64,000 nucleotides of DNA from an uncultured Bacilli bacterium. GTDB lineage: Bacteria; Bacillota_I; Bacilli_A; RF39; UBA660. A program made the translations under genes and the position numbers. The notes under the pieces are model-generated. The model did no database searches. It was not told where the DNA came from and saw nothing but the letters and a program-made list of their open reading frames with translations. Below, in pieces: positions 12,302-45,455 of the stretch (position 1 is its first letter; each line of letters opens with the position of its first letter). Where the stretch lies: contig CANQKO010000002.1 in the NCBI GenBank assembly GCA_947624505.1, positions 10,097 to 74,096 of the forward strand. The letters run 5' to 3'.

Positions 12302-12310
12302 TTTTCCCTC

Positions 12311-13195: not shown

Positions 13196-13197
13196 AT

Positions 13198-14736: not shown

Positions 14737-14740
14737 ATAA

Positions 14741-16919: not shown

Positions 16920-17983
16920 TTGCCTTTCTCCTTTTTCTTTTTATGTTCATATAATATATCCGTTTTTAAAATAACAAATATTAATAAAAGTAATACCAAT
17001 AAATATAAAATTATAGCTTCTCTATTATCACCAATAACATAAATAATAGAAATGCTTGAGAAGATGATATTGATTAAATAAATGATAATAATACTTACTT
17101 TAGGAGAAAATTTTAATTTTAATAATTGATGATGAAAGTGTTCTTTATCTGGTGTACCAATACTTTCACCCTTTAATAGTCTTCTAAAGATAGCAAGAAT
17201 TGTATCAAATATCGGAATAGCTAAAATAGTTATTGGAATAACTAAAGATGTAAGCGTTGCTACTTTAAAACCTAAAAGAGCGATAACACTAATCATAAAG
17301 CCTAAAAATAAACTACCCGAATCACCCATAAATATTTTAGCTGGGGGAAAATTATTAACAAGAAACCCTAAAGTTGAACCAAGCATAATAAGAGATAAAA
17401 TAACATCTAATCCACCCATCTTATTTAAAACAAAAGCAATAATACCAATAGTTAAAAAATATATTGAACTAATTCCTCCCGCTAAACCATCTAAACCATC
17501 AATTAAATTAATGGCATTAGAAATAGCTACAATAAAAAATGTTGATAAAACATAACTTATTAACAAATTAAATTTTAAATGTAAACCTAAAAAAGTAATT
17601 TCACTAAAATAAACTTGACCATAAATTACCACAATTAAAGCTGAGATAATTTGCACTAAAAATTTATAACGAGCTTTGATGGGTTTAATATCATCAAAGA
17701 CCCCTACTAAAAAAATAATAAAAGAGCCAATTAATATCGAAATCATTTGAGTTGTAATTGAACCATATAAAATATAACCAATTAAAAAGGCACCATATAT
17801 AGCTAATCCACCTAATCTTGGCATTGGTTTTTTATGGATCTTCCTAGCATTAGGAATATCAATTGCCCCAATATGACTAGCTACCTTTTTAGCAATGGGT
17901 ATTAATGCTAAACTTACTACAAAGGTAACTAATATTATTTCCAATATGCTATGTCCATTTATAACTAAATTCATAACTACCAC
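16916..17983 (-). CDS. tagO: undecaprenyl-phosphate GlcNAc-1-phosphate transferase (MraY/WecA/TagO family)
   Basis: Polytopic membrane protein with DDIKPIKARYKF and NAINLIDGLDGLAGG motifs of polyprenyl-phosphate N-acetylhexosamine-1-P transferases; TATAAT and AGGTGG lie upstream. Confidence 0.9.
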   Translation of the reverse strand: MVVMNLVINGHSILEIILVTFVVSLALIPIAKKVASHIGAIDIPNARKIHKKPMPRLGGLAIYGAFLIGYILYGSITTQMISILIGSFIIFLVGVFDDIKPIKARYKFLVQIISALIVVIYGQVYFSEITFLGLHLKFNLLISYVLSTFFIVAISNAINLIDGLDGLAGGISSIYFLTIGIIAFVLNKMGGLDVILSLIMLGSTLGFLVNNFPPAKIFMGDSGSLFLGFMISVIALLGFKVATLTSLVIPITILAIPIFDTILAIFRRLLKGESIGTPDKEHFHHQLLKLKFSPKVSIIIIYLINIIFSSISIIYVIGDNREAIILYLLVLLLLIFVILKTDILYEHKKKKEKGK

Positions 17984-20318: not shown

Positions 20319-20331
20319 AATTACAACCTTT

Positions 20332-24822: not shown

Positions 24823-27003
24823 TCATTTTGCAATGATGAAAGGATCAGAGGAAGTACCTGTTCCAGAGGAAACTGCACCCGTTGACCCAACGTAAAATAC
24901 AGGTCGTACATCGTACTCCGAATAATAAGTATCGATATTAATCTTCCCGTTATCATATCTAATATTAAGACTATTGCAATGCCTTACCATCCAACCGTAC
25001 CTTGTCATGGTCCACTCCCGACGCTTATCGGTTTCATTACCCGAATTACCACCGTATAACCACCCCATACATCCCGTGTAGCAATTTGTTTCGGGGTCTC
25101 CACTAAAAGCATAACTATAATCGCTGACGGACATAAGTCCGACTTTCGCATCTATGGTGTCAGTCCACCTATCCACGAAACCGTCCTTCACATCATAACC
25201 ACCACTCCAGCTAGGAGCCTGACCCGTCTCAATAGAATACAATACCTCGGCACCGGCGTTGTAACAAGCTCTCCCGTTTCCGCAGTCGTACCCCATATCA
25301 CCATAGAGCCAAGTCGTCGAGATAATTTTATCCTGCCAGATTCGGTCCAACCCCAAAAGGAATTCACTTCCATTCACAGCATCGAATAAGGAACTCTCAG
25401 CCCACTTCACACATGTGGAATCTTCGTTCTCCCATGGATAACCCTTATTATTTAGTCGACCATTCATGATCAACTTCATCTCTCCCTCCTCTGTCATGCC
25501 TATTATTCTATAAATATATTTATTGTTCCTTATTCCGGACCTACACTCCGATACATCATCATAACCAAAACAGATGAAATTATCCACGATGTCATTGCAC
25601 CCATCGCTTTCCGCATTACAAGAACCGTAGAACCGATACATCCCTCCCAAAAGTTCATCACTAATTCCGTTCGGTATTACTTTTAAAACTTCTAAAGCTT
25701 TTCGTTGTCCTTCAGACATCTTTTTTTCTGTAATTACCTTTACATTTGGATAAGGCGATTGACTATATCTTCCTGATGCATCTCTCACTCTTGCTTCTAT
25801 GGTATACTCTGTTCCATCACTTAAATTACTTATTGTACAACTTCCATCTGGAGCATTTGTCCACTCTTCTGTTCCCGGTACTCTACATTGTCTTTCTATT
25901 ATACTACTACTTGGTGTTGTATCTGTTCCACTTACTATTACTGTGATACTACTTGTATCTTGGGTATTTTTACTTATTGTTGCTGTTGGATTTGTTTTAT
26001 CTAACGTTATACTCTTTGTTGATGTTGTATTTATTTCTGATTCATTCCCTGCTTTATCTTTTACTTTTATTTTTACACTATGACTTCCTTCTGTATCGTT
26101 TAATGAATATTCTTTATTTGTTAATGATGTTGATGTTAAATTATCATAACTACAATTATCTTCATATACACAATATTGGTCTATATTTGTTTCTGTTATA
26201 CTTGTACTATATTTTATATTTTTTGTATGAGTATATAATGATGAATCACTTAATTGTTGGTCTTCATCTGCTGTTCCTGTTAAGGTAAATGTTTTTACTA
26301 CAGGTTTTGTTTGATCTACTGTTATTGTTGCTGTGGATTTATCTGTTGTTACTGATATATTATTTGCTTTATCTTTTAAATATATATACATTGTTTTTTC
26401 GCCATCATTTTTATCTTTTAATGTATATGTACCACTTGTTTCACTTAATGTTTGCCAATTACAATTTTCTATACTATTTGTTTCATTTATACAATATTGT
26501 TTTACATCACTTTCATTATCTGTATATGTTACTGTAAATGGTATATTATCTGTTTGATAAGTAAAATTATTACTTAAAGTTGTTCCTCCACTTGTTTTCC
26601 CTGTGACATTAAAAGTATTTATTGTTGGTGTTTCATTTTTATCAAAATATAAATCACAATATATTGTATTTTTACTATTTATGGTTATACTTCCATTTAT
26701 TACTCCATCAGTTAATTCTTGAGTTACAGGTATTGGTGTTATTTCTTGATCATTATAACCTTTACATACTGTTTTAGTTGTATTTAGTAAATAACCACTA
26801 GTTGGAAATGCTATATCAGTTGATGGATCATATATATCACCTCCAACTGTTTTTTGTAAATATATACTAAATTCTTTTCTTTCTATTTTACTTACTTTAT
26901 TCTTTTCTACCACACTAGTATCTTTTTTAAATACTGTTATTATACTTATTATTGTTAATATTACTATTGTTATAATAATTATTATTCTTTTATTCTTTTT
27001 CAT
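24823..27003 (-). CDS. N-terminally anchored surface protein with Ig/Fn3-like domains and a ~300-aa Cys/Trp/Gly-rich C-terminal module
   Basis: Start likely at MKKNKR (27003). TM anchor and beta-rich repeats. A ~90-aa block is almost identical to one in the 27848..29479 protein. The C-terminal coding third has markedly higher G+C than its surroundings. Confidence 0.7.
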   Translation of the reverse strand: MKKNKRIIIIITIVILTIISIITVFKKDTSVVEKNKVSKIERKEFSIYLQKTVGGDIYDPSTDIAFPTSGYLLNTTKTVCKGYNDQEITPIPVTQELTDGVINGSITINSKNTIYCDLYFDKNETPTINTFNVTGKTSGGTTLSNNFTYQTDNIPFTVTYTDNESDVKQYCINETNSIENCNWQTLSETSGTYTLKDKNDGEKTMYIYLKDKANNISVTTDKSTATITVDQTKPVVKTFTLTGTADEDQQLSDSSLYTHTKNIKYSTSITETNIDQYCVYEDNCSYDNLTSTSLTNKEYSLNDTEGSHSVKIKVKDKAGNESEINTTSTKSITLDKTNPTATISKNTQDTSSITVIVSGTDTTPSSSIIERQCRVPGTEEWTNAPDGSCTISNLSDGTEYTIEARVRDASGRYSQSPYPNVKVITEKKMSEGQRKALEVLKVIPNGISDELLGGMYRFYGSCNAESDGCNDIVDNFICFGYDDVSECRSGIRNNKYIYRIIGMTEEGEMKLIMNGRLNNKGYPWENEDSTCVKWAESSLFDAVNGSEFLLGLDRIWQDKIISTTWLYGDMGYDCGNGRACYNAGAEVLYSIETGQAPSWSGGYDVKDGFVDRWTDTIDAKVGLMSVSDYSYAFSGDPETNCYTGCMGWLYGGNSGNETDKRREWTMTRYGWMVRHCNSLNIRYDNGKINIDTYYSEYDVRPVFYVGSTGAVSSGTGTSSDPFIIAK

Positions 27004-27127
27004 AGACAACCATCCTATCATATTAGTGCTTATAGCACAATAACAATATAACATATTTAAATTAAAAAATCTAGTGCTATAAGCCCATAAAATTATTTTT
27101 TGATATATTAGAAAATATTAATAGGAG

Positions 27128-27847: not shown

Positions 27848-29479
27848 TCAACTTACGCGAGCGGGCATATAGCATTTATCAGAACCATATAGCGACCCAA
27901 TGCCGTTAGGGCATCTATAACGCGTACACATCTCGCTACATTCCAAATGAGCACCTTCCGAAGAATTCCAAGTGCCGCTTCCTGGATCTTCATAACAGCC
28001 TTGAAAGCACTCGGGCGGATTAGCATTTGCTTTAGCAGTCTCACATTGTTCTTTGGTTGAATAATACTTCACATTCCAGCTACACACTGTCTTACATCCC
28101 GCACAACCATATTGCTCTTCTACCGCATCCCAAACACATATATATCCTCCCGAACTCTGACCATAACTCGGATTATAGGTTAACGTTCCTCCTATTCCGT
28201 CGCAAGTGTAAGTAATATCTTTATCAGTCAATACACTAACACTCGGATAAGGCTCTTGACTCCATCTTCCTGAGACATCTCTTACTCTTGCTTCTATGGT
28301 ATATTCTGTGCCATCATTCAAATTATTTATTGTACAGCTTCCATCTGGAGCATTTGTCCACTCTTCTGTTTCTTTTACTCTACATTGTCTTTCTATTATA
28401 CTACTACTTGGTGTTGTATCTGTTCCACTTACTGTTACTGTGATACTACTTGTATCTTTTGTATTTTCTTTTACTTCTGCTGTTGGATTACTTGTATCTA
28501 GTGTTATTGTCTTTGTTTTTGTTATTGATACATTTCCTTTCTTATCTTTTAAGAAGGCATTTATTGTTTTTAATCCTTCATTATTATTGCTTAATGTTAA
28601 TGTATTTGTAATGGTTTTACTATCTCCAACTGATTTCCATTCTCCATCATTACAACTATCATTTTCTGTTATACAATAACTTTCTACATCTTCATCTGTA
28701 AATGTTAATTTATATGATACCTCATTTTTATGAGTATATAATTTATTATCTGTTAATTCTGTATTATCTGTAACTCCTGTTACAGTAAATTCTTCTATTG
28801 TTGGTGGGGTTGTATCTTTTAATACACATTTTAAATCACTTACTTCAACACTTATATTTAACTCTTTATTTACTAAATAATCTTGAGCTTTATTTGGATC
28901 ATTATTTAATAATACTTGTAATTTTATTTCATTTTTATTAATCTTACTTACATCAAAATTTGTTACATAGACTTTTTTATTGGCTTCTAATTCATTTTTT
29001 ATATTACTTAAATCATATTCTTCTTCTAAACTATTACCTGTTAATTTTAACTTTAAATCATTTTTATTAATTACTTCACTTAAACTATTTTCTTTTTCAC
29101 TAATAAGAGAAACAGTTATATTAGCACTACATTCATACGTATTAATGGCATCTTGTAAGACACTTACACTAGCAATTATATTAGTTCCTGCTTCTTCTGT
29201 TATTTCATAATTCTTTGTTTCATCACTTGTGGCATAATATGTTCTTACTTCACTATTTTTATTTAAATCAGAGGGTTGTAATCTTATATGCAAGTTATCT
29301 ATTAATTGTGATAAAACTATATTACTTAGTTTTGGTGTTCTACCCGCTATATTTGTTATAGCATTACTATCTGAACTAGCACTAAAATAGGCATATGTTG
29401 CTCCCACTGTTAACATTATTAAGAATGCCACTGCTATTACACTACTTACTATTAATTTCTTTTTATTATTTTCTTTCAT
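27848..29479 (-). CDS. secreted protein with a SipW-cognate-type signal peptide, Ig/Fn3-like domains and a ~120-aa Cys-rich C-terminal module
   Basis: Start at MKENNKKK (GAGGT RBS). The signal ends ...LTVGATYAYFSASSD (TasA/CalY-type motif). It shares the Fn3-like block with the 24823 gene, and its C-terminal coding region is GC-rich. Confidence 0.7.
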   Translation of the reverse strand: MKENNKKKLIVSSVIAVAFLIMLTVGATYAYFSASSDSNAITNIAGRTPKLSNIVLSQLIDNLHIRLQPSDLNKNSEVRTYYATSDETKNYEITEEAGTNIIASVSVLQDAINTYECSANITVSLISEKENSLSEVINKNDLKLKLTGNSLEEEYDLSNIKNELEANKKVYVTNFDVSKINKNEIKLQVLLNNDPNKAQDYLVNKELNISVEVSDLKCVLKDTTPPTIEEFTVTGVTDNTELTDNKLYTHKNEVSYKLTFTDEDVESYCITENDSCNDGEWKSVGDSKTITNTLTLSNNNEGLKTINAFLKDKKGNVSITKTKTITLDTSNPTAEVKENTKDTSSITVTVSGTDTTPSSSIIERQCRVKETEEWTNAPDGSCTINNLNDGTEYTIEARVRDVSGRWSQEPYPSVSVLTDKDITYTCDGIGGTLTYNPSYGQSSGGYICVWDAVEEQYGCAGCKTVCSWNVKYYSTKEQCETAKANANPPECFQGCYEDPGSGTWNSSEGAHLECSEMCTRYRCPNGIGSLYGSDKCYMPARVS

Positions 29480-29530
29480 ATTTAACCTCATTCACACCCG
29501 TACGATGATAATATGTCAATGGTGAAATAA

Positions 29531-31368: not shown

Positions 31369-32313
31369 TCATTTAGCAATATTTAACTTTTCATAAACTT
31401 TTTTAAATACTTTTTCATATTTATATTCTAACATTTTATAATATAGTTCTCTTTGATAATAACTAAATACTTCTAAACCTTCATAAGTATCAGGAATAGA
31501 TAAAAATAACTCTTTTATTTTTAACATATCAATTTTAGGGAATATTCGAAGTAATGCTTTATTACAATTAATATTTTTAGTACTTTCAATATATTTTAAC
31601 GGATTTATTAACTTATCATTTTCCGTAAATGCACAAACACTACTATCATAAGTCATTTGGATAAATTTATCATTATTATTTAAAATATCTCTAAGCTTTT
31701 CATCACCAGCTTTATTATAAAATGATGCTCCATTATCATATACAGGAGATAATCTTAAATTACCAGATTCTTTATCTAAAATGAGTCCCCAATTAGCTTC
31801 ATTTCGATCATTATTACTTAAAAAAGCATCAATAATAAACATATCCCAAAATCTTTCCTTTAATTTTGGAACAAATTCAAAATAAATATTGTTATTCATT
31901 ATATATATAACATCATCTAAATCATCAAAACGATTAAATTTTGAAGATGAACTTCTATTTTCTAAATACTCTTCAATATCTTTATCATAACTATTTTTAA
32001 TAGCATTAAAATCAATTATTTCTTCGGTATTTTTTAAAAAGTCTTTACAAGCTACGACTATTTTCCCATTTAAATACCCAAGTAATGTTTTATGAGTATC
32101 TATTCCAATTAATTCATATATATGGGAACCTAAATATTCTGATAATGGAGATGTAGTATAAGAAATACTATCAACATTCATACTTTTAGTACTTTTAGGA
32201 AATTTAACTAAATAAGTTTCACCATCTATTATAAGACCTATTTTACTTCCACTATGACCACCATAAGCTTTTTTAGCTATTTCCTCTTTATTAAAATCTC
32301 TTATTTCTAACAT
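31369..32313 (-). CDS. HipA-like (CtkA/HipA C-terminal domain) putative Ser/Thr kinase
   Basis: DAFLSNNDRNEANWGL and LSPVYDNGAS blocks resemble the HipA_C catalytic and activation motifs (D.h.gN.DRH..N). Confidence 0.45.
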   Translation of the reverse strand: MLEIRDFNKEEIAKKAYGGHSGSKIGLIIDGETYLVKFPKSTKSMNVDSISYTTSPLSEYLGSHIYELIGIDTHKTLLGYLNGKIVVACKDFLKNTEEIIDFNAIKNSYDKDIEEYLENRSSSSKFNRFDDLDDVIYIMNNNIYFEFVPKLKERFWDMFIIDAFLSNNDRNEANWGLILDKESGNLRLSPVYDNGASFYNKAGDEKLRDILNNNDKFIQMTYDSSVCAFTENDKLINPLKYIESTKNINCNKALLRIFPKIDMLKIKELFLSIPDTYEGLEVFSYYQRELYYKMLEYKYEKVFKKVYEKLNIAK

Positions 32314-34109: not shown

Positions 34110-35036
34110 TTACCCCTTTTTAATATATAATATTATTTTTCCTAATAATTTACCAATTGGTCTATTTTTCCCCCGACTATATAATCTTTTATAATATTTT
34201 TCGATACTATCAGTTCGATAATTAATGAGATTATTTAAATCATCACTATCTATTAAAACGGGACTTATATAATCTTTATCTAGAATCAATCTTGCTAAAA
34301 CATATTTTAAACTTAAACCATAATTCTTTAAAATATTATCTAAGATATCTTGATATTTATATCTTCCTTCCGGACCCATTCCTATATTAAATATTTTTTT
34401 ATTAAGTATTGATGTATAATTTAAAGCCTTAACAAAGGCATAAGCAGCATCAAAAGTTGTTGTTACTTCTACTACTAAATCTTTTTTAACATTATAAATA
34501 AATGGTTCTTTTTTTAAATCACTTAAAACTAATGGTACTCTAAATATCGTATAATTTTTTAATTTCTTTTTTATTAATTCTTCTGTTATATATTTATTAT
34601 AACTAAAGTTAGTTAGTGAATCTTCTTTAATAGTCTCTTTAACCGAAGCCATTAATGATTTATCATACAAAGATGTTGTTGAAGCATAAAATAAATGACA
34701 ATTTTTATTATAATAGTTAATAGCTTTGATAATATTTTCGCACCCCTTATAATCTACTACTTCACCAATGTTTTTTGAAAAATCTCCTAAAGGAGGAAGA
34801 ACACTTGCTAAATGAATAATATAATCATTTTGTTTGACTACATCTTCCATTAAAGAATAATCATTTACATCACCATAAATAATTTTAATTCGCTTTTGAT
34901 ATTTTTTAAGTCTTTTATAAACACTTTTATTTCTTAAATCTAAAGCTGTTATTTCATATTTTCCTTCACTTAGTAAATATTTAATAACATTTATACCAAT
35001 AGCGCCAGAGGCTCCCGTAACTAATACCTTTTTCAT
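34110..35036 (-). CDS. NAD-dependent epimerase/dehydratase family protein
   Basis: VLVTGASGAIG Rossmann N-terminus; 308 aa. Confidence 0.7.
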   Translation of the reverse strand: MKKVLVTGASGAIGINVIKYLLSEGKYEITALDLRNKSVYKRLKKYQKRIKIIYGDVNDYSLMEDVVKQNDYIIHLASVLPPLGDFSKNIGEVVDYKGCENIIKAINYYNKNCHLFYASTTSLYDKSLMASVKETIKEDSLTNFSYNKYITEELIKKKLKNYTIFRVPLVLSDLKKEPFIYNVKKDLVVEVTTTFDAAYAFVKALNYTSILNKKIFNIGMGPEGRYKYQDILDNILKNYGLSLKYVLARLILDKDYISPVLIDSDDLNNLINYRTDSIEKYYKRLYSRGKNRPIGKLLGKIILYIKKG

Positions 35037-35050
35037 AATTCACCTACTCT

Positions 35051-35788
35051 TTAGAAAATTAATGTAATAAGTAATACTATTACACCTACTATTATACCAT
35101 AGATACTACTTTTTTTCTTAAAACTTAATTTAAATTCATTAAATAATTCAAATACTAAGATATAAAGAAGCATTCCAAAGGTAAGAGATAATAATATACT
35201 TTCTATTAGGGTGTTTAGATTACCAAAAATAATAACAATTAAAGATCCTAATACAGAACTAAACACTAATAAAAGGATTAATAACAAATTATTATTTTCT
35301 TTTCTTAAATCGTTTCCTATTTGCAATCCTAAAGGAATATTATGTAAAGATATGCTTATCATCATTAATATCCCACTTGTTAAATTATTTATAGTAACAC
35401 TATATAAAGTTAAACCCTCTAATAAATTATGAATTGTTAAGGCTAATATTGTAATAATACCAATATGATTTAAATGCTCAATATGTTCTTTTTTATTATC
35501 ATTATGTTCTTTATGGTTATGATGGTGATGAGGTACTAACTTGTCTAACAAAATTAATAAGCCAAAACCAATAATAAAAGGAATAATTAAAAAAACATTT
35601 TTATATTCGATGATTTCTGGTAACAAATCACCTATTAATAAACCTAAGATAATTGTAAAAGCAAGAGATGTTGTAAAAATAGTAATATTTTCTTTATTTT
35701 TAGATTTATTTAATAAACCAATCCCAATTAAGAAAGATAAACCTGTAAAAAGTGTTAATAAAAGACCCCAAACCATTAAAATCACCAA
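35051..35788 (-). CDS. ZIP-family metal (Zn/Fe) transporter
   Basis: 8 TM helices with a His-rich loop HHHHNHKEHNDNKKEH and a conserved HN..EG helix IV motif. Confidence 0.75.
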   Translation of the reverse strand: MVILMVWGLLLTLFTGLSFLIGIGLLNKSKNKENITIFTTSLAFTIILGLLIGDLLPEIIEYKNVFLIIPFIIGFGLLILLDKLVPHHHHNHKEHNDNKKEHIEHLNHIGIITILALTIHNLLEGLTLYSVTINNLTSGILMMISISLHNIPLGLQIGNDLRKENNNLLLILLLVFSSVLGSLIVIIFGNLNTLIESILLSLTFGMLLYILVFELFNEFKLSFKKKSSIYGIIVGVIVLLITLIF

Positions 35789-35837
35789 TACAATTTTACC
35801 ATTATAAGAAGAAAAAAGATAGTCACAAAACTATCTT

Positions 35838-38800
35838 TTACTTACCAATTCGTTCACATTCGCCAACTTCAATTGTTAAGTTACCTTTAATAGATTTATC
35901 AATATTATTAGATTGGTCAAATTTCGAATAATTTCTAAATATTAATTCAATATCCCAAACTTGAGAAGTAAGATTATCATCATCAGCATCATTACTTATT
36001 TGAATATCTTCAATTACATATTCAGCATTTTCAATAATATCGATATCATATGTTTCTTTTACTTCATTAGAACTTTTAGCTTTATAGCCCTTTAATCTTA
36101 ATATCATTTGATTTTTTAATTCTTTAAGTTCTTCTGTATCAGAAATATATTGGTTGGTAAAGTTATTGGTTTCAGTCTTATATCTTAAGCTATATGTACA
36201 AGTAGTAATTTCAGCATTAGATTTTAATGAAACTTTAGCTTGTTTAGGGCCACTTGTGATTTCAATAAATTCTTTATCACCAACATTTTCTTTTGACATA
36301 TCGTCGCCCGTAATTTTTAAGTTAATATTATTTGCATTTTCAATAGTAAGTAATCCTTCTATTTCATCCTCGGTACAATTCTTATCACACTCACCATCGC
36401 CATTACTATCACATTTAGAATCGCACTTACCATCGTTTGGTTTACCGCCATTACCACCAGTATCACAGTTTAAATCACAAATACCATTGTTATCAGGGTC
36501 ACAATTTCGGTCACACTCACCGTCATTTGGCTTTTTACGATCAGATCCATCATCACAGTTTTTATCGCACTTGTTATCATCAGGAGTTCCACCAAATGAT
36601 CCATCATCGCAATTACTATCACAAACTCCATCACCGTCATCATCACAGTTTTTATCACATTTGCCATCACCGGCAGTTCCACCAAATGAACCATCATCAC
36701 AATTAGAATCACATTTACCATCATTAGGCTTACCATTATTTTTTCCATCGTCGCAATTAGAATCACATTTGCCGTCATTAGGAGTGCCACCGTTTTTGCC
36801 ATCGTCACAGTTTAAATCACATTTACCGTCACCAGGAGTGCCACCATTTGAACCGTCATCACAGTTACGATCACATTTGCCATCATTAGCTTCTTTTCCA
36901 TCAGATCCATCATCGCAGTTTTTATCACACTTATTATCACCAGCTTTGCCGCCGAATGAACCATCATCACAGTTTTTATCACATTTGCCATCACCGGCAG
37001 TGCCTCCATTGGATCCATCATCACAGTTTTTATCGCATTTGCCATCACCGGCAGTGCCTCCATTGGATCCATCATCACAGTTTTTATCACAAGTGTTATC
37101 ACCAGGAGTACCACCGAATGAGCCATCATCACAATTGCTATCGCAAATGCCATCATTTATTTTACCACCGTTTTTGCCATCATCACAGTTTTTATCGCAC
37201 TTGCCATCATTTGGCTTGCCACCGAATGAACCATCATCGCAGTTTTTATCACACTCGCCATCACCAGGAGTACCTTTATTAGAACCATCATCACAGTTTT
37301 TATCACATTTGCCATCACCTGTAGCACCACCAAATGATCCATCATCACAATTCTTATCGCATTTGCCATCACCAGGAGTGCCTTTATTAGATCCATCATC
37401 GCAGTTTTTATCACAAGTTTTATCACCAGCAGTACCATTATTAGAACCATCGTCACAATTCTTATCGCATTTGCCATCACCTGGAGCGCCACCAAATGAT
37501 CCATCATCACAGTTACGATCACATATATCATCACTAGCTTTGCCACCAAATGATCCATCATCACAATTGGAATCACAAATATCGTCATTTGGTTTGCCAC
37601 CGTTTTTACCATCATCACAGTTCTTATCGCATTTACCATCATTTGGTTTACCATTATTGGCACCATCATCACAGTTTAAATCGCAAATGCCATCATTAGA
37701 TTTACCATTATTGGTACCATTATCACAATTACGATCGCACTTATTATCATTTGGAGTTCTGCCAAATGATCCATCATCACAGTTACGATCACATTTACCA
37801 TCACCAGGAATACCACCATTAGATCCATCATCGCAATTTCTATCGCATTTGCCATCGCCTTTAACTCCACCATTAGATCCATCATCACAATTGCTATCAC
37901 ATTTACCATCATTAGGAGTGCCACCATTTTCGCCATTATCACAGTTTAGATGACATTTACCATCAGTTGTACAGTTACGATCACATACACCATTATTATC
38001 TGGATCACAATTTTTATCGCATTCACCATCACCATCGGTGTCACAATTCCTATCACATTCACCATCACCAGGAGTGCCACCAAATGAGCCATCATCACAA
38101 TTTAAATCGCATTTACCATCGCCATCAGTATCACAATTTTTACTACATTTGTCATTATCACCAACATAGCAATTTAAATCGCAATCACCATCACCATCAG
38201 TATCACAATTTTTATCACATTTACCATCGCCATCAGTATCACAATTTAAATCGCATTCACCATCTCCGTCGGTGTCACAATTTTTATAACATTTATCATC
38301 GTCACCAATATGGCAATTTAAATCACAATTGCCATCACCATCAGTATCACAATTTTTATCGCACTTATCATCGTTATCGGTATCACAATTTTTATCACAC
38401 TTACCGTCACCGGCATCGCCACCAAATGATCCATCATCACAATTTACATCACATTTGCCATCACCATTGGTGTCACAATTTTTATAACATTTATCATCGT
38501 CACCAACATAGCAATTTTTATCACACTCGTCATCACCAGCTTCGCCACCAAATGATCCATCATCACAATTCTTATCGCAAATACCATCACCAGCAGTACC
38601 GCTATCGGAGCCATCATCACAGTTTTTATCACATTTGCCATCGTTAGGTTTACCGCCATTAGATCCATCATCACAATTAATATCACAAATATTATCATCA
38701 GGAGTACCACCGAATGAACCTTTATCACAGTTACGATCACACTTACCATCGCCAATAGTTCCACCATTAGATCCATCATCACAGTTAGAGTCACACGTGT

Positions 38801-39083
38801 TATCGCCAATAGTTCCACCAAAACGACCATCGTCACAATTTAAATCACAACTACCATTACCATCATAGTCACAGTTTAAATCACATTTACCATCACCATC
38901 GACATCAACATTAATATTAGATGATCCAAAATTTTCACCCGCGCCAAATTGATTAAAGGTAAAAGTCGTAAGTATTAAAATAAAACATAAAAGCATTATG
39001 ATTAACATAATGACTATTGCCAATAACCTTCTTTTTTTTAATTCTGTATATTCAAAATTTTCTATTTGATTTTCTGTTTCCAT
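35838..39083 (-). CDS. giant membrane-anchored repeat protein with about 50 Cys/Asp-rich Ca-binding (thrombospondin type-3-like) repeats and a ~190-aa globular C-terminal domain
   Basis: N-terminal TM helix; 18-aa units CDxNCDDGS[FN]GGxxGDG[KE] and 12-aa units CDxNCDTDGDGx iterate from about aa 58 to 894. The DxDGDGxCDxNC pattern is TSP3-like. Confidence 0.75.
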   Translation of the reverse strand: METENQIENFEYTELKKRRLLAIVIMLIIMLLCFILILTTFTFNQFGAGENFGSSNINVDVDGDGKCDLNCDYDGNGSCDLNCDDGRFGGTIGDNTCDSNCDDGSNGGTIGDGKCDRNCDKGSFGGTPDDNICDINCDDGSNGGKPNDGKCDKNCDDGSDSGTAGDGICDKNCDDGSFGGEAGDDECDKNCYVGDDDKCYKNCDTNGDGKCDVNCDDGSFGGDAGDGKCDKNCDTDNDDKCDKNCDTDGDGNCDLNCHIGDDDKCYKNCDTDGDGECDLNCDTDGDGKCDKNCDTDGDGDCDLNCYVGDNDKCSKNCDTDGDGKCDLNCDDGSFGGTPGDGECDRNCDTDGDGECDKNCDPDNNGVCDRNCTTDGKCHLNCDNGENGGTPNDGKCDSNCDDGSNGGVKGDGKCDRNCDDGSNGGIPGDGKCDRNCDDGSFGRTPNDNKCDRNCDNGTNNGKSNDGICDLNCDDGANNGKPNDGKCDKNCDDGKNGGKPNDDICDSNCDDGSFGGKASDDICDRNCDDGSFGGAPGDGKCDKNCDDGSNNGTAGDKTCDKNCDDGSNKGTPGDGKCDKNCDDGSFGGATGDGKCDKNCDDGSNKGTPGDGECDKNCDDGSFGGKPNDGKCDKNCDDGKNGGKINDGICDSNCDDGSFGGTPGDNTCDKNCDDGSNGGTAGDGKCDKNCDDGSNGGTAGDGKCDKNCDDGSFGGKAGDNKCDKNCDDGSDGKEANDGKCDRNCDDGSNGGTPGDGKCDLNCDDGKNGGTPNDGKCDSNCDDGKNNGKPNDGKCDSNCDDGSFGGTAGDGKCDKNCDDDGDGVCDSNCDDGSFGGTPDDNKCDKNCDDGSDRKKPNDGECDRNCDPDNNGICDLNCDTGGNGGKPNDGKCDSKCDSNGDGECDKNCTEDEIEGLLTIENANNINLKITGDDMSKENVGDKEFIEITSGPKQAKVSLKSNAEITTCTYSLRYKTETNNFTNQYISDTEELKELKNQMILRLKGYKAKSSNEVKETYDIDIIENAEYVIEDIQISNDADDDNLTSQVWDIELIFRNYSKFDQSNNIDKSIKGNLTIEVGECERIGK
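36400..38910. repeat. in-frame 54-nt / 36-nt tandem coding repeats
   Basis: Near-perfect nucleotide periodicity underlies the protein repeats. It creates many spurious ORFs on other frames. Confidence 0.85.
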
Positions 39084-39105
39084 TTTCTTCCCACCTTACT
39101 ACTAT

Positions 39106-39738
39106 TTATTGTTGTTGACCTTCAACTGGAGTGCTATGAACATTGACTCTATAATAAACCAATTTACCTATATCACTTGTTGGCGTATCCTTTGAAAGCC
39201 AGATATATATTCTATATGTCTTTTGAATTGTAGTGCCATTCTTTTTTGCTATGGTGGTATTTAAAATTGGGTAATTACTATTACTGCCAAGTGTAGATAA
39301 TTGAACATAGTTTTGAGCATTAAATTTAACCCAACTACTACCATCATATATACCGACATAAATATATTTAGGATCTAATCTATCTGTAGTGGTTGTTCCA
39401 GTTGGTAATTGGTCATCAACTAAAGTCACAGAATATCTCGCATCTATATCGCCATCATTTTTAATCGTTAATGTGACATAACCACTAGCTGGAACAGTGC
39501 TAGTTACAGTAGTAACATCTACAGGCTTTAATTCTTTATTCCACGTTGATTGATTACTTCCATCCACTGTAACATTTAATGTCCCGGCTTTAAAAGAATA
39601 TAAATTGGGTTGTACTTTAACATCAAAAAAAGCTGAATATGAAACATTCAGTGTTAAGATAGTCAACACTAGTACAGATATAATCATAAGCTTAGTATTA
39701 CTCTTTTTTATTTTTTTATCATCTCTCTCAGATATCAT
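39106..39738 (-). CDS. small secreted beta-rich protein with a SipW-cognate-type signal (TasA/CalY-like candidate)
   Basis: 210 aa; the signal anchor ends LTLNVSYSAFFDVK, resembling the TasA-class signal-peptidase motif. It lies 22 bp upstream of the giant repeat-protein gene. Confidence 0.5.
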   Translation of the reverse strand: MISERDDKKIKKSNTKLMIISVLVLTILTLNVSYSAFFDVKVQPNLYSFKAGTLNVTVDGSNQSTWNKELKPVDVTTVTSTVPASGYVTLTIKNDGDIDARYSVTLVDDQLPTGTTTTDRLDPKYIYVGIYDGSSWVKFNAQNYVQLSTLGSNSNYPILNTTIAKKNGTTIQKTYRIYIWLSKDTPTSDIGKLVYYRVNVHSTPVEGQQQ

Positions 39739-39879
39739 CTATGTCACCTTATCATAAGTTTATCACATAATTTTTTTTATCTCAATACCTAAATTATTCT
39801 TTTTATTTAAATATTGTTTTTAAAATTGTTTACTTTCTTTTACTTTTAATGCTATAATACTATGGTTGTGGGTGATATT

Positions 39880-41688
39880 ATGGAAATAAGAAATGTTGCA
39901 ATTATTGCACACGTTGACCACGGTAAAACTGCTTTGGTCGATGAAATATTAAAATTTGTAGGAACTTTTAGGGAAAATCAAGATGCTTCTAACTTTTCAA
40001 TGGATTCAAATCAAATTGAAAAAGAACGTGGTATTACTATTTTAGCCAAAACTACATCAATTATTTATAATAATGTTAAAATTAATATTTTAGATACACC
40101 AGGACATGCTGACTTCGGCGGTGAAGTTGAAAGAATTATGAAAATGGTTGATGGGGTTATTTTAGTTGTTGATGCTTATGAAGGGCCAATGCCTCAAACA
40201 AGATTTGTTCTAAAAAAAGCTATTGATGCGGGAGTTAAACCAATTGTTGTTATCAATAAAGTTGATAAACCAACAGCAAGAATTAAAGAAGTTGTTGATG
40301 AAGTTTTAGGTTTATTCCTTGATTTAGGGGCATCTGATGAACAACTTGATTTTAAAGTAGCTTATACTTCAGCTTTAAATGGTACATCTAGTTTATCTCA
40401 AGATTTAAGTACCCAAGAAAAATCATTTAAATGTGTTCTTGATTTAATCATTAATGAAATTAAAGCTCCAGAAGGTGATGTAAATAAAACATTACAATTT
40501 CAACCTGCCCTTCTTGATTACAATGATTATGTAGGAAGAATTGCAATTGGTCGAGTTTTTAATGGTAAAGTTAAAGTTGGCGAAATGGTTAATTGTCTAA
40601 GACTTGATGGAACTGCTAAACAATTTAGAATTCAAAAGTTATTTGCATTTACCGCTTTAGCCAAAGTTGAAGTTGAAGAAGTATCGGCTGGTGATATCTG
40701 TGCTATTGCTGGCTTAGAAGATATCTCAGTTGGTGAAACAATTACCGAAGTTGGTAATAATGAAAGATTACCAATTATTCATATTGATGAACCAACCTTA
40801 CAAATGACTTTTGGGGTTAACACATCTCCTTTCTCTGGTAAGGATGGAAAATTATTAACATCAAGAAAAATCGAAGAAAGATTAATTAAAGAAACTCAAA
40901 AAGATGTTAGTTTAAAAGTTGAACAAATTGATTCTGAAAACTTCCTAGTCTCAGGAAGAGGTGAATTACACTTATCTATTTTAATTGAAAATATGCGCCG
41001 TGAAGGCTTTGAACTACAAGTTTCCAAACCTAAAGTTATTATTAAGGAAATAAATGGCGTTAAATGTGAACCATATGAAGACTTACAAATTGAAGTTGAT
41101 GATGAATATATGGGTGGTGTTATTGAAGAGTTATCAACAAGAGGTGCCATAATGGGTAATATGACACATATCGGCAGTATGACAAGAATTACTTATACGA
41201 TTCCATCAAGAGGATTAATTGGTTTTGCTACTAACTTTATGACTTTAACTAAAGGGTATGGCATAATGAATCATACATTTAAAGACTATGAACCAACAGT
41301 TAATGTTGATTTAGGGGAAAGAAAACTTGGTGTTTTAGTATCAAGTGAAACAGGTAAATCAACAGCTTATGGTATCGGTCAACTTGAAGATCGGGGGATT
41401 ATGTTTGTTGAACCAAATACTGATGTTTATGAAGGTATGATTGTTGGTGAGTGTAATAGAGATAATGACTTAGCAATTAATATTGTTAAAGGCAAAGAGC
41501 TTACCAACACCAGAGCGGCTTTCTCAGATAAAACGGTTGTTTTAAAAAGACCAAGACCAATAACTTTAGAGTACGCTCTCGATTATATTAATCAAGATGA
41601 ACTTGTTGAAGTAACCCCTAACTTTATTAGACTAAGAAAAATAATTCTTAATACTGAACTAAGAAAAAAGGCAGATGCTAAAAAATAG
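39880..41688 (+). CDS. typA: translational GTPase TypA/BipA
   Basis: MEIRNVAIIAHVDHGKT G1 motif, DTPGHADF G3 motif and an EF-G-like domain order; a start in the track at 39862 is also possible. Confidence 0.9.
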   Translation: MEIRNVAIIAHVDHGKTALVDEILKFVGTFRENQDASNFSMDSNQIEKERGITILAKTTSIIYNNVKINILDTPGHADFGGEVERIMKMVDGVILVVDAYEGPMPQTRFVLKKAIDAGVKPIVVINKVDKPTARIKEVVDEVLGLFLDLGASDEQLDFKVAYTSALNGTSSLSQDLSTQEKSFKCVLDLIINEIKAPEGDVNKTLQFQPALLDYNDYVGRIAIGRVFNGKVKVGEMVNCLRLDGTAKQFRIQKLFAFTALAKVEVEEVSAGDICAIAGLEDISVGETITEVGNNERLPIIHIDEPTLQMTFGVNTSPFSGKDGKLLTSRKIEERLIKETQKDVSLKVEQIDSENFLVSGRGELHLSILIENMRREGFELQVSKPKVIIKEINGVKCEPYEDLQIEVDDEYMGGVIEELSTRGAIMGNMTHIGSMTRITYTIPSRGLIGFATNFMTLTKGYGIMNHTFKDYEPTVNVDLGERKLGVLVSSETGKSTAYGIGQLEDRGIMFVEPNTDVYEGMIVGECNRDNDLAINIVKGKELTNTRAAFSDKTVVLKRPRPITLEYALDYINQDELVEVTPNFIRLRKIILNTELRKKADAKK

Positions 41689-43744: not shown

Positions 43745-44100
43745 TTACATTTCTTTTTGAATGTTGATTATCTCTTCTTCTTTTAAATTTAATATTTCAC
43801 TTATTTCTTTTGTACTCATTCCTTTTGATAACAGTTTTTTTGCTGTGTTGATTTTTGTTTCGTAAATACCTTTTTCTAAACCTTCTTGAATTCCTTTTTC
43901 CAAACCTTCTTGAATTCCTTTTTCTAATCCTTTATTTTCACTATCTTCCATTCTCTTTCGGTATATGTATTCGAAATCTCTTTCTTGCTCAAGTTGCATT
44001 TGTTTGATCACATCTTCATTCATCTCTAATACTTTCTCCCCTACTTTCTTAAGTATCTCGTTTGTTTTTCCTAACGCAATGATTTCTTCTTTATTCGCCC
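43745..44100 (-). pseudogene. 3' fragment (C-terminal ~95 codons plus a downstream segment) duplicated from the Rpn-family gene at 44493..45455
   Basis: Nucleotide identity with 44493..44880 includes the EKGIQEGL repeat region and the tail; identity breaks at ~44100. Confidence 0.6.
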
Positions 44101-44492: not shown

Positions 44493-45455
44493 TTATATTT
44501 CTTTTTCAATGTTAATTATCTCTTCTTCTTTTAAATTTAATATTTCACTTATTTCTTTTGTACTCATTCCTTTTGATAATAGTTTTTTTGCTGTATTGAT
44601 TTTTGTTTCATAAATACCTTTTTCCAAACCTTCTTGAATTCCTTTTTCCAAACCTTCTTGAATTCCTTTTTCCAAACCTTCTTGAATTCCTTTTTCTAAT
44701 CCTTTATTTTCACTATCTTCCATTCTCTTTCGGTATATGTATTCGAAATCTCTTTCTTGCTCAAGTTGCATTTGTTTGATCACATCTTCATTCATCTCTA
44801 ATACTTTCTCCCCTACTTTCTTAAGTATCTCGTTTGTTTTTCCTAACGCAATGATTTCTTCTTTATTCGCCCCTAATAAAGTTAGTTCTTGATGCGTTGG
44901 ATCTCCTTTGATGTTTTTATCATACCACAACTTTTTATACCCAGCAATATTTACAGTTATTATTTTAAATTTATCATAGTATTCTTGTCCATAATTATCT
45001 ATTAGTTTGATAACTCTTTTTAATTCATCTTTTGGATGATTAAAATCTAAATTTATTTGAACTACTTCATCGATATTTTCCCATCTTTCTCTTTCTTCAC
45101 TTTCTTCCTTACTATCACTACTTCTTCCCATTGTTGTCGCATATTTATATTTTCTTAATAATAACCGAAAATAATACATTAAATTTCTTTCTTTGATATA
45201 TTCATCAAAATTACTATTTAATTCCACGTTTATTCTTTTTTGATCTTTTGTTAACAACAAAATATCTAATACTTGCACTTTATCTCTTACCGATGACATT
45301 GGTAATTCACTATATTCTATTTCTTCTACTTTTACTTCTTTTTCTAATATATCTGTTAACATTCCATTTAAATAACGACGATTTAATATATCTAACACCA
45401 CTGATTTAAATACTCGGTCATATGAAAGATTATAGAATGGTTTTTCATCTGTCAT
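44493..45455 (-). CDS. Rpn/YhgA-like PD-(D/E)XK recombination-promoting nuclease / putative transposase family protein
   Basis: The N-terminal Y..S.D.VFK....D.....LN..L..IL signature and a C-terminal (EKGIQEGL)x4 repeat followed by a LLSKGMSTKEISEILNL helix are typical of this family. Confidence 0.65.
   Translation of the reverse strand: MTDEKPFYNLSYDRVFKSVVLDILNRRYLNGMLTDILEKEVKVEEIEYSELPMSSVRDKVQVLDILLLTKDQKRINVELNSNFDEYIKERNLMYYFRLLLRKYKYATTMGRSSDSKEESEERERWENIDEVVQINLDFNHPKDELKRVIKLIDNYGQEYYDKFKIITVNIAGYKKLWYDKNIKGDPTHQELTLLGANKEEIIALGKTNEILKKVGEKVLEMNEDVIKQMQLEQERDFEYIYRKRMEDSENKGLEKGIQEGLEKGIQEGLEKGIQEGLEKGIYETKINTAKKLLSKGMSTKEISEILNLKEEEIINIEKEI

Follow-up and report, generated by a model that had tools for sequence, protein, structure and literature searches.

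TasA-type fibres represent a major principle in the structure of Gram-positive and archaeal biofilms and, to our knowledge, have so far come from cultured Bacillus species and extremophilic archaea. In B. subtilis tapA precedes sipW. The core of the TSP3 repeat reads DxDxDGxxDxCDNC. TasA depends on SipW because of the aromatic residue at its P2′ position (PMC10269814), and TapA is a 253-aa precursor that acts via its N-terminus (PMC10151520). AbpX, AbpA and CanA are archaeal or bacterial fibres of the TasA superfamily that assemble by donor-strand complementation, in some cases triggered by Ca2+, and in bacteria the AbpX loci also contain genes for SLH or LPXTG anchors, for which strand complementation is the predicted way of joining the fibre. 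The gene pair analysed here, for which no description was found in the literature searched, lies in a 64-kb stretch of DNA, hereafter the window, from a walled, low-GC (~25%), uncultured gut bacillus whose cell-wall genes include a Mur ligase, TagA/WecG and an O-antigen-ligase-like protein.

Gene order and transcription signals

Three co-directional ORFs occupy the minus strand, to which all feature coordinates below refer. The 210-aa Fam1 gene (39106..39738) encodes a predicted fibre subunit of the TasA superfamily, the 1081-aa stalk-protein gene (35838..39083) encodes an N-terminal tail and TM helix, a repeat stalk and a C-terminal Fam2 domain, and a 245-aa ZIP/ZupT-like metal transporter gene (35051..35788) follows. 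The ORF list reproduced exactly the coordinates that a preliminary description had assigned to all three, together with its statement that the 210-aa protein is encoded directly upstream of the larger one in the same direction. The spacer between the pair (39084..39105) is 22 nt long and contains the RBS AAGGTGG and no terminator; a scan of 34900-40000 returned no terminator-like site anywhere. A consensus scan alone places a promoter-like site (TTGAGA-17-TAAACT, extended -10 TG) at 39757..39785, and the count of such sites that it gives for the region is not above that of shuffles. This site falls inside a 123-nt divergent region shared with bipA.

The order small-large-ZIP is kept in all 12 related loci examined (10 MAG loci plus L020 and L021). 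Positional orthologues of the stalk protein in the 10 MAG loci span 684-1968 aa, and repeat-poor versions of 251 and 258 aa are also found. In three further loci (L055, L063 and L075) the order bipA...Fam1-Fam2-ZIP-epimerase-patatin-yebC, matched by ORF lengths, contains a free Fam2 protein in place of the giant one, and because of this shared order the giant protein is the positional orthologue of free Fam2. The closest loci all have a long syntenic block in common, from bipA to tyrS; part of the conservation of the pair is relatedness, since the loci of the window's clade share this wider gene order.

The third ORF matches Pfam Zip with 65 bits (cut-off 35.1), in keeping with the earlier observation that a ZIP metal transporter follows, and reaches 90 bits on the NCBIfam ZupT equivalog, below the cut-off of 252; on sequence grounds it is a ZIP-family protein, not a certified ZupT. 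The ZIP gene follows the pair in every related locus, including the repeat-less ones, and has a promoter-like site just upstream (35828-35801). Because the adjacency is independent of the repeats, inheritance of the gene order seems a better explanation for it than a functional connection, and ZIP is probably a conserved neighbour, not part of the module.

The small protein and SipW-type signal peptidases of other loci

Residues 1-35 of Fam1 (39634..39738) form a signal peptide or signal anchor that ends in the near-invariant LTILTLNVSYS, and hydropathy peaks at residues 17-35. In an alignment of 16 homologues, residues 21-38 are nearly invariant compared with 41-76% identity elsewhere. Cleavage is predicted at S35/A36, within the ...LNVSYSAFFD terminus that had been noted before and is present in the sequence. 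Positions -1 and -3 of the predicted site are both Ser and P2′ is Phe, and given this cut mature Fam1 would start A-F-F-D-V-K, position 4 of the mature protein being Ser in three of the 16 homologues. The following residues 36-58 (AFFDVKVQPNLYSFKAGTLNVTV; 39565..39633) are strongly conserved and have a pLDDT <50 in the monomer model, and constitute a candidate N-terminal donor strand. The low pLDDT of residues 1-50 in the same model is compatible with a donor strand and by itself proves nothing.

The structure model shows a TasA-like fold for Fam1, with a beta-sandwich/jelly-roll core superimposable on TasA or Abp subunits. The best Foldseek match is AbpA, and the sole PDB sequence match of the Fam1 profile is AbpX, a weak one (E 0.016). 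Mature Fam1 is mildly basic (pI 8.05, 9% D+E). By analogy with these fibres Fam1 may polymerise by donor-strand complementation. In Pfam and NCBIfam, Fam1 has no match to TasA/camelysin models at E<0.1, and the TapA model TIGR04087 is matched by one of the 16 family members (E 0.0077), with no other related signal. The SipW-signal model TIGR04088 matches neither full Fam1 nor its first 60 residues, even at E<=10. Thus, the SipW-class signal proposed earlier for the small protein is favoured by the Phe at P2′ but not by this model.

The preliminary description proposed a genome search for sipW. Inside the 64-kb window, Pfam, motif and phmmer scans detected no sipW-type peptidase (Pfam was run on every ORF of 100 aa or more, apart from shadow ORFs and a single ORF of 112 aa), and the 12 closest loci likewise have none within 10 kb. 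SipW-type peptidases do stand beside homologous modules in seven other loci (L023, L066, L069, L079, L088, L093 and L094). Proteins with a TM helix and repeats are encoded directly upstream of the peptidase in L023, L066/L079, L069/L070 and L094, and in L088 a repeat-less TM protein with the same N-terminus takes this position. On TIGR02228 (cut-off 51.9) the peptidase of L023 reaches 103 bits; the remaining ones of this group match it by phmmer with E 1e-37 to 1e-72. Elsewhere, outside the bipA-tyrS block, stalk proteins sit between SipW-signal proteins and the SipW-type peptidase. The location of the stalk protein upstream of the peptidase in other Bacilli matches that of tapA before sipW.

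Anchor, repeat array and head of the stalk protein

Residues 1-44 of the stalk protein (38952..39083) comprise an acidic/basic cytoplasmic tail, a TM helix at residues 20-38 and the motif TTFTFN. The helix is the only strongly hydrophobic segment of the 1081-aa protein (hydropathy 3.62), which agrees with its earlier classification as N-anchored. After the helix, aligned stalk orthologues conserve (S/T)(S/T)FTF(N/D/E) and stalk proteins in other lineages display G(A/S/T)TF(S/L)Y, while TTFTFN itself aligns with the SipW-type motif G-A-T-F-A-Y-F of free Fam2 proteins. The tail EEQYxLLEEEKK is conserved among stalk proteins and therefore argues for retention of the N-terminus, so that the protein is presumably held in the membrane.

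Residues 67-905 (36369..38885) form an array of 53 CxxxC units, slightly more than the roughly 50 first reported, and are presumed to be a Ca-binding stalk. The array comprises 35 units of 18 aa (CDxNCDDGSxGGxxGDGx), 16 of 12 aa (CDxNCDTDGDGx) and two odd ones. CxxxC occurs 53 times in the protein against 13.6 +/- 3.3 in shuffles, and C[DYHS]xNC 52 times against 0.5. Asp contributes 24% of the array, Cys 13% (106 residues, in CxxxC pairs) and Asn 13%, with a net charge of about -127. The view that each unit contains both a Cys pair and a DxDGDG loop is correct for the pairs, but DxDGDG occurs only seven times among the 53 units. A canonical DxDxDG loop is missing from the dominant unit of 18 aa (CDxNCDDGS[FN]GGxxGDG), and the count for the looser Dx[DN]x[DN]G is 12 in the array against 5.5 in shuffles. 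Orthologues built of PDxNxDxDGDG units contain 25-73 such loops.

Comparison with Ca-binding repeat models, a check that had been proposed with the lack of a score named as refuting, gave no score for the window protein: it matches no Pfam family at E<0.1, TSP_3 included, and six stalk orthologues do not match TSP_3 at E<1. One stalk orthologue matches FG-GAP at 22.1 bits, exactly the cut-off, and ClfA/Sdr SD-repeat regions give weak low-complexity matches to the 1081-aa protein. The HMMER composition filter may hide Ca-repeat matches in the low-complexity array. Since no Ca-binding repeat model scores, we infer Ca binding from the composition of the array; the Cys pairs are similarly predicted to form disulfides. 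Across homologues, both Cys of a unit occur together in 307 units and are otherwise replaced by P/A plus I/V, the second Cys stands alone in only eight units, and there are 98 further first-Cys-only matches, which include out-of-register ones such as CDTNGD. The repeats of L011 and L012 lack Cys, these proteins having two Cys each.

At the DNA level the tandem periods are 54 and 36 nt (TRF matches 72% and 69%). The units had been described as near-identical and hence open to slippage, but repeats of this kind are not present, pairwise identity between units averaging 0.70-0.71 and one of 595 pairs of 54-nt units being at least 95% identical. One adjacent pair is 98% identical and includes a 53-nt exact repeat. 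In the sole within-species comparison, which bears on the copy-number check suggested earlier, 2253 nt of the gene match an independent metagenome contig (L001) at 100% identity and without any difference in copy number. Metagenome assemblies often break inside the repeat gene. The TM helix and head persist among homologues whose stalks measure from about 20 to about 1740 aa (between species, about 21 to 1738 aa), and in P0162 and P0163 the array is absent or reduced to 2-3 units.

The all-beta Fam2 head (residues 906-1081; 35841..36368) contains two invariant Cys and the motif FRNYxxYxQxNN. It is non-repetitive, ~176 aa long and conserved in 10 orthologues; this head forms the protein's conserved core, the variable part being the stalk. 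Homology (hhalign 96.7%) links the head to apparently secreted, free-standing proteins of ~220-250 aa that have signals of the SipW type. Thus, the ~190-aa globular end recognised before is indeed a distinct domain, but not an unrelated add-on. The free Fam2 homologues, which appear to be secreted, score 15.3-17.7 bits on TIGR04088, below the cut-off of 19. A 547-aa protein of the window scores 15.7 bits on this model, also below the cut-off. Neither Fam1 nor Fam2 is covered by any Pfam or NCBIfam model, and no sequence similarity was found between the Fam2 head and Fam1. A Fam1 relative adjoins free Fam2 in 36 of the 44 metagenome loci of at least 10 kb, many of which are the same few species in different samples; with Fam2 clustered at 70% identity, the same holds for 14 of the 16 clusters. 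Contact between Fam1 and Fam2 is plausible.

A candidate surface-fibre module compared with described systems

The pair is most likely a cell-attached surface-fibre system, and we lean slightly towards its fuller form, a two-component module of the TasA superfamily with stalk anchoring and Fam2 docking. A fibre module is the best reading because of the Phe at P2′, the kept gene order and the SipW-type peptidase beside related repeat proteins; of the Ca-dependent extracellular fibre or adhesin module proposed initially, the fibre is retained, and Ca binding is presumed from composition. Export of Fam1 would include cleavage after SYS35. The signal peptidase responsible is probably a SipW/archaeal-type enzyme whose gene lies elsewhere in the genome. 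Inserted as a donor strand, the new N-terminus AFFDVK... would complete the beta-sandwich of the following subunit in the fibre, which, as with TasA, would form without a chaperone. The 1081-aa protein would be held in the membrane by its N-terminal helix, and its ~840 Asp/Asn/Gly-rich residues, presumably Ca-loaded and braced by Cys pairs, would be the stalk that lifts the Fam2 head through and past the wall and polysaccharide. There the head might serve as docking or nucleation partner for the Fam1 fibre, and stalk length would set the distance of the fibre start from the cell. In other lineages the Fam2 domain is itself a secreted SipW-type protein. Against a fibre module, no sequence HMM places Fam1 in TasA/camelysin or TIGR04088, and sipW is absent from the window and from the 10-kb surroundings of the 12 closest loci. 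Also against it count the mildly basic character of mature Fam1, unlike the acidic Ca-responsive AbpX clade, the lack of Ca-repeat matches apart from the FG-GAP one at the threshold, the repeated sampling of a few species among the co-occurrence loci and the wider gene order common to the window's clade. More tentatively, uncultured gut Bacilli, some of them from human gut metagenomes, may possess an undescribed TasA/SipW branch made of two unannotated jelly-roll families, Fam1 and Fam2. In some clades Fam2 would have become a membrane-tethered nucleator through insertion of a new kind of Ca-loaded, Cys-paired stalk of 12/18-residue units, a tunable spacer for the start of the fibre relative to wall and capsule. 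Under such a scenario the stalk grew from a few to about 100 units.

The same module could operate with the giant protein cleaved and released, as a long matrix cross-linker or minor subunit rather than an anchor, its donor-like strand parted from the Fam2 core by a ~840-residue acidic spacer. The (S/T)(S/T)FTF(N/D/E) motif aligned with the cleavage region of free Fam2, the G(A/S/T)TF(S/L)Y of other lineages, the apparent secretion of free Fam2 and the fact that TapA, in the equivalent operon position, is a SipW substrate (PMC10151520) all speak for release. In contrast, Thr at -1, a 19-residue helix of hydropathy 3.62 and a charged tail are more like a signal anchor, and a conserved cytoplasmic tail is pointless if discarded, which makes release unlikely. 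Somewhat less probable still is a stand-alone adhesin of variable length, with no Fam1 contact and neighbours by inherited order. It would explain the retention of anchor and head across species in which length differs widely, is reminiscent of the 'Periscope protein' concept (PMC8201768), and suits a head dissimilar in sequence to Fam1 and closest loci that all lie in the bipA-to-tyrS block. Yet the Fam1-Fam2 adjacency persists where Fam2 is small and free and in 14 of 16 Fam2 clusters, stalk proteins outside that block sit between SipW-signal proteins and the peptidase, and the 22-nt gap holds no terminator.

We give very little credence to two readings centred on the array itself. As an extracellular sink or reservoir for Zn2+, Ca2+ or another metal, working with the ZIP importer, it would make use of 106 paired Cys, 24% Asp and a ZIP gene after the pair in every related locus; but the ZIP adjacency is the same without repeats (L020, L055/L063/L075) and where repeats lack Cys (L011, L012), the pairs are freely swapped for Pro/Ala plus Ile/Val, ZIP has its own promoter-like site, and the conserved parts are the TM helix and head, not the array. 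Equally improbable is a contingency locus with slipped-strand length or phase variation in the population. Its tandem organisation, the single 98% identical adjacent pair with its 53-nt exact repeat, the length differences between species and the assemblies broken in the gene are set against a mean unit identity of 70%, the lone pair in 595 reaching 95%, and the L001 contig with its unchanged copy number.

The locus and its relatives suggest that Bacilli with small genomes, uncultured inhabitants of rabbit, goat and human guts, use the TasA principle too, and that their fibre is attached in a new way: in place of an SLH or LPXTG wall anchor, a membrane helix leads into a repeat stalk whose length can evolve. 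Confirmation would give hundreds of gut proteins now called "hypothetical" an annotation, provide poorly known gut lineages with a candidate structure for colonisation or aggregation and add a new short Ca-binding repeat with paired cysteines, of possible use to protein engineers. All of these predictions are testable with recombinant proteins.

Among described repeats, TSP_3 shares the short Asp-rich units with paired Cys, and the 12-aa unit DTDGDGKCDKNC reads DxDxDGxxDxxC, which comes close to the TSP3 core; in contrast, the model matches neither the window protein nor six orthologues and the Cys spacing is CxxxC instead of CxxC. The orthologues with PDxNxDxDGDG units, and the one at the FG-GAP threshold, resemble DxDxDG loops, whereas the dominant 18-aa unit differs from TSP_3, dockerin and FG-GAP in having no canonical DxDxDG. 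Similarly to Periscope and SD-repeat MSCRAMM stalks, a variable repeat region separates cell anchor and distal domain. Their arrangement is reversed here, with an N-terminal membrane helix in place of a C-terminal LPXTG anchor; further differences are units that are 12-18-residue motifs and not folded domains, the low DNA identity between units (70%) and the absence of within-species length variation in the sole comparison (L001). The Abp systems are approached by the AbpA Foldseek match, the weak AbpX sequence match and the donor-strand signature of Fam1 (aromatic at position 2, acidic at 4), and bacterial AbpX loci, like this one, encode a separate partner, there a cell-anchoring protein, beside the subunit. 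Fam1 is not acidic, with a pI of 8.05 against about 4 for AbpX; an N-terminal membrane helix and repeat stalk replace the SLH/LPXTG wall anchors; the AbpX peptidase, with ten TM helices, is another difference; and it is the partner, not the subunit interface, that here carries the acidic and presumably Ca-binding part. From TasA/TapA/SipW of B. subtilis, and CalY/TasA of B. cereus, the locus departs in lacking membership of a TasA/camelysin, TapA or TIGR04088 model, in the absence of sipW from locus and window, and in an accessory protein that, unlike TapA, has 1081 aa, a TM helix, a ~840-aa stalk and a head unrelated in sequence. In common with that operon are the TasA-like beta-sandwich of Fam1, the aromatic P2′ at the predicted cleavage site with a conserved N-terminal strand, a second, accessory gene beside the subunit gene and, in related Bacilli, an accessory-type protein directly upstream of an archaeal-type signal peptidase, as in tapA-sipW. 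The best reading of the pair is a TasA/SipW fibre module in a new variant, one with a stalk partner of variable length.

Architecture of the giant protein and its repeats

Three closely packed ORFs fill positions 35051-39738 of the reverse strand of the window, whose G+C content is approximately 25%. The gene of the small protein Fam1 (210 aa; 39106-39738, -) is followed by that of the 1081-residue giant protein (35838-39083, -), which begins 22 nt past it, and by a ZIP transporter gene (245 aa; 35051-35788, -; Pfam Zip, 65 bits). The giant protein comprises a charged N-terminal tail, a single very hydrophobic helix of 19 residues (residues 20-38, hydropathy 3.62), an array of 53 CxxxC-led units extending from residue 67 to approximately 905 and a non-repetitive C-terminal part of approximately 176 residues, the head domain. 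The array is dominated by 18-residue units (35 of 53) with the consensus CDxNCDDGS[FN]GGxxGDGx, and 16 units follow the 12-residue consensus CDxNCDTDGDGx. This arrangement of units, helix and C-terminal domain, proposed in the preliminary description, is real, since CxxxC occurs 53 times, far above the 13.6 of composition-matched shuffles, C[DYHS]xNC occurs 52 times against 0.5, and the array consists of 24% Asp, 20% Gly, 13% Asn and 13% Cys with a net charge of about -127. Long ORFs also run opposite to the array (36154-37953, 599 aa, and 37967-38647, +) and in other frames of its own strand (36470-38836, -); they reach at most 599 aa, have Ser/Pro/His- or Met/Val-rich translations and were rejected as genes, being shadows of the repeats.

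Two sequence properties ascribed earlier to the repeats do not hold. The units are not near-identical in DNA: TRF matches amount to 72% at the 54-nt period and 69% at the 36-nt period, the mean pairwise identity is 0.70 and a single pair of 54-nt units out of 595 reaches at least 95% identity. In an independent metagenome contig carrying the same Fam1 gene, the repeat gene is 100% identical over its first 2253 nt and the copy number is unchanged. The DxDGDG motif, supposedly present in every unit, is found in seven only, the looser Dx[DN]x[DN]G in 12, and the dominant 18-residue unit is without the canonical DxDxDG loop. The expected likeness to calcium-binding repeat families also finds no counterpart in Pfam, where no model, TSP_3 included, matches the giant protein at E<0.1; six orthologues give nothing usable in Pfam either, with no match to TSP_3 and one of the six reaching the FG-GAP threshold exactly. 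Matches of the giant protein to staphylococcal SD-repeat adhesins in NCBIfam and Pfam are of low complexity, lie far under the cut-offs and were rejected as compositional. Composition and a partial resemblance to DxDxDG loops nevertheless suggest that the repeats may bind calcium.

The repeats vary among species, many of which display PDxN[IV]DxDGDG units, and the arrays of two homologous proteins are without Cys. Among the homologues a unit either has both of its Cys (307 units) or carries Pro/Ala plus Ile/Val in their place; the second stands alone in only eight units and the first in 98 further matches, which include out-of-register ones such as CDTNGD. Thus, judging from this both-or-neither pattern, the Cys appear to work as a pair within each unit, one for which a hydrophobic pair can substitute.

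Fam1 and its predicted SipW-type processing

Only 16 close homologues of Fam1 are found, none of them named or carrying a Pfam domain; residues 21-38 (SVLVLTILTLNVSYSAFF) are almost invariant and the remainder is 41-76% identical. A profile search of 1.8 billion representatives extends the family to 552 relatives, in which the N-terminal module of approximately 200 residues stands alone or is followed by CarboxypepD_reg, CBM_X2, DUF6273 or other surface-type domains. The AlphaFold model of Fam1 has a pLDDT of 73 overall and 78-91 across most of the core; residues 1-50 are disordered. With this model Foldseek returns only the Pyrobaculum bundling pilus AbpA (7ueg_A) and TasA (8aur_A) at E<=1e-3, the next matches being chaperone-usher pilins, and the sequence profile gives one weak match in the PDB, to AbpX (E 0.016). 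Cleavage is predicted after SYS35, with small residues at -1 and -3, and the resulting mature start, A-F-F-D, matches the signature of TasA and AbpX donor strands, which are aromatic at position 2 and acidic at position 4 (preprint 10.64898/2026.01.04.697558). The predicted site also carries, as in TasA, the aromatic P2' residue to which PMC10269814 attributes the dependence of TasA on SipW. Since the curated models of Pfam and NCBIfam miss Fam1, with no match to TasA/camelysin or TIGR04088, its placement in the TasA superfamily is based on the predicted fold and the N-terminal signature and not on membership in a sequence model. With a pI of 8.05 Fam1 is not acidic, and therefore differs from the typical members of the Ca-responsive AbpX clade.

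No signal peptidase I was found in the window by Pfam searches of nearly all real ORFs, a box-B motif scan and phmmer with a SipW-type query, and none of the 12 closest loci has a sipW gene within 10 kb; a nearby sipW gene was thus rejected. The window encodes a second, near-canonical SipW-type signal (...GATYAYFSA, ...MLTVGATYAYFSASSD) on a 547-aa protein (27848-29491, -; TIGR04088 15.7 bits, cut-off 19), which by this signal is a second candidate SipW substrate, approximately 10 kb from the Fam1/giant-protein pair. Its presence makes it likely, although not proven, that a SipW-type enzyme is encoded elsewhere in the genome. About 0.8 kb downstream of this gene, on the same strand, lies another (24823-27054, -) whose 743-aa product matches Big_13 weakly.

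Several other lineages display, in order, at least one small protein with a SipW signal, a TM-plus-repeat protein and a SipW-type peptidase, an arrangement that mirrors the tapA-sipW-tasA operon order. The repeat protein is present at L023, L066/L079, L069/L070 and L094, whereas at L088 a TM protein with the same N-terminus and position is devoid of repeats. These repeat proteins have 315-866 residues, are built of CDxNCD and PDxNID units and start with EEQYxLLEEEKK, a helix and then G(A/S/T)TF(S/L)Y. With TIGR02228 (cut-off 51.9) the peptidase of L023 reaches 103 bits and with the Bacillus SipW model 90 bits, and the remaining peptidases match it at E 1e-37 to 1e-72. Stalk proteins of other lineages end in a different head of approximately 130 residues (...PGWxG...FTIKNNS...YNINL..V.N.F...; L066/L079 12700-15300, L094 3392-5341, L088 10745-11995, L023 7562-8509), preceded in some by a cadherin-like module; its motif pattern resembles Fam1/TasA-like domains, with marginal HMM evidence (E 0.003 in an 11-sequence search). 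At L023, McrB-like ATPase and DUF2357 genes (2613-7474), restriction-system-like, lie between the genes of stand-alone Fam2 proteins, relatives of the giant protein's head, and the stalk-SipW-Fam1 genes, as if inserted into the fibre locus.

Conservation of the gene pair and homology of the head

A one-genome-per-species scan recovers the pair at 10 loci, all in MAGs of uncultured Bacilli, most of them of rabbit-gut origin and one from goat rectum, and one labelled uncultured Mycoplasma sp. At all 10 the Fam1 gene is directly followed by that of a TM-anchored, Asp/Asn/Gly-rich repeat protein of 684-1968 residues, and all 10 share the block bipA (divergent), small, large, ZIP, epimerase, patatin, yebC and tyrS. 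Conservation of the C-terminal domain is high: two of its Cys are invariant and it carries an FRNYxxYxQxNN motif. Two metagenome variants, whose genes both sit between the Fam1 gene and ZIP, are repeat-poor: in P0162 (258 aa), which has no repeats, a short Pro-rich linker joins the TM helix to the same C-terminal domain, and P0163 (251 aa) retains two or three units only. As stalk length ranges from approximately 21 to 1738 residues among homologues, the stalk is, from these comparisons, the dispensable and length-variable part, and helix and head are constant. Between yebC and tyrS the window carries a HipA_C-like kinase gene (314 aa; 31369-32313, -), whose position is empty in L004 and occupied in L006/L010 by split ORFs of 102 and 215 aa, the latter corresponding to the C-terminal part of the kinase; the element appears variable or decaying inside the otherwise syntenic block.

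As a homologue query the C-terminal domain alone found nothing and its alignment only three short variants, and a 5.8-billion-protein collection yielded only variants or fragments of 165-258 aa and not the full-length repeat proteins. Short-read metagenome contigs regularly stop inside the repeat gene (L001-L003, L005, L007, L009); protein catalogues therefore systematically under-represent the family.

The identity of the head emerges from distant Fam1 loci. L023 and L024 encode, near the Fam1 gene, small proteins of 227-247 aa with a nearly canonical SipW-type signal (...LLTVIAVATLLVAVVGATFAYF..., TIGR04088 15-18 bits, just below the cut-off of 19). The head domain matches these proteins at E 6e-10 in hmmsearch, and hhalign aligns it with the stand-alone Fam2 proteins at a probability of 96.7% (E 3.9e-10, 156 columns), both Cys and a W...F.N...Q motif being kept; by these profile matches the proteins are homologous to the head. 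A metagenome scan with the free-Fam2 alignment gives 80 loci, at least 12 of them labelled human gut metagenome. The Fam1 gene is present in 36 of the 44 loci of at least 10 kb, usually directly upstream on the same strand, and the association extends to 14 of 16 Fam2 clusters at 70% identity. ORF lengths indicate the order bipA...Fam1-Fam2-ZIP-epimerase-patatin-yebC, as in the window, for L055, L063 and L075. Thus, by homology and gene order, a small secreted Fam2 protein is the positional orthologue of the giant protein, which has a TM helix and repeat stalk ahead of the Fam2 core. PDB sequences gave no match to the C-terminal domain by itself or to the merged Fam2 alignment, and Pfam gave none to the latter. 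A head domain copied from Fam1 was rejected, BLASTP and two profile-profile comparisons giving no similarity.

Proposed fibre and stalk, and alternatives

Wall and wall-polysaccharide genes of the window include those of a Mur ligase, TagA/WecG and an O-antigen-ligase-like protein. A large wall-polysaccharide or teichoic-acid-type locus (3344-17983, -) encodes an MBOAT protein, a UDP-GlcNAc 2-epimerase, several glycosyltransferases, the O-antigen-ligase-like protein (897 aa), TagA/WecG, GT-D, a flippase, a pyruvyl transferase and a GT4-family initiating transferase, and shows that the organism possesses an elaborate wall, which a stalk would have to cross. Two secreted proteins are encoded at 18810-22074 (-), one combining SH3_3 with a type I dockerin (55.9 bits), the second having a cadherin-like beta-sandwich; in a Mollicutes-like Bacillus with a small genome, the dockerin points to possible cohesin-dockerin assemblies at the surface. 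Elsewhere a PD-(D/E)XK transposase-family protein (320 aa; 44493-45455, -) has a GLEKGIQE tandem repeat, and a 92-aa ORF about 500 nt downstream (43745-44023, -) is a near-exact copy of its C-terminal part.

We lean, by a little over even chances, towards reading the module as a Fam1 fibre with a membrane-held stalk bearing a Fam2 head. The analysis establishes the architecture, the Fam1 fold, the homologies and the linkage of the genes, and from these infers cleavage, polymerisation, contact of Fam1 with Fam2, calcium binding, disulfide bonds and retention in the membrane. Fam1 would be exported, cut at S35|A36 and polymerised, each subunit inserting its N-terminal strand into the following one, a mode shown for TasA (PMC9674648) and AbpX (preprint 10.64898/2026.01.04.697558). 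The giant protein would remain in the membrane, as proposed from its long conserved cytoplasmic tail, 19-residue helix and a -1 residue ill suited to cleavage. Its N-terminal TTFTFN does align with the ATFAYF cleavage region of free Fam2, as would suit a protein cut and released as a long cross-linker, which is nevertheless unlikely.

That the giant protein is an independent adhesin of variable length is distinctly unlikely; its stalk does vary, but the Fam1-Fam2 association is also found outside the syntenic block. The Cys-rich array next to ZIP could suggest a metal sink coupled to the transporter, but the adjacency is unchanged in repeat-free and Cys-free relatives, so that a functional tie of ZIP to the Cys-rich repeats was rejected and the sink is hardly credible. 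Equally improbable in the extreme is a slippage-driven contingency locus, which the tandem repeats might evoke but whose unit identity is only 70%.

Fibres of the TasA superfamily and SipW-type processing are already known. The searchable literature, Pfam, NCBIfam and PDB sequence models yielded neither the Fam1 and Fam2 families as defined here, nor their pairing in gut Bacilli, nor a partner turned TM-anchored with a Cys-paired acidic stalk of 12/18-residue units.

If a Fam1 fibre is indeed held through the stalked protein, the Fam2 head would be projected on an acidic stalk, probably stiffened by calcium and braced by Cys pairs, and would dock or nucleate the fibre, a role comparable to that of TapA (PMC10151520) and of the SLH/LPXTG anchors predicted to join AbpX fibres. 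The length of the stalk would determine how far from the membrane the fibre base lies, by analogy with the Periscope proteins (PMC8201768).
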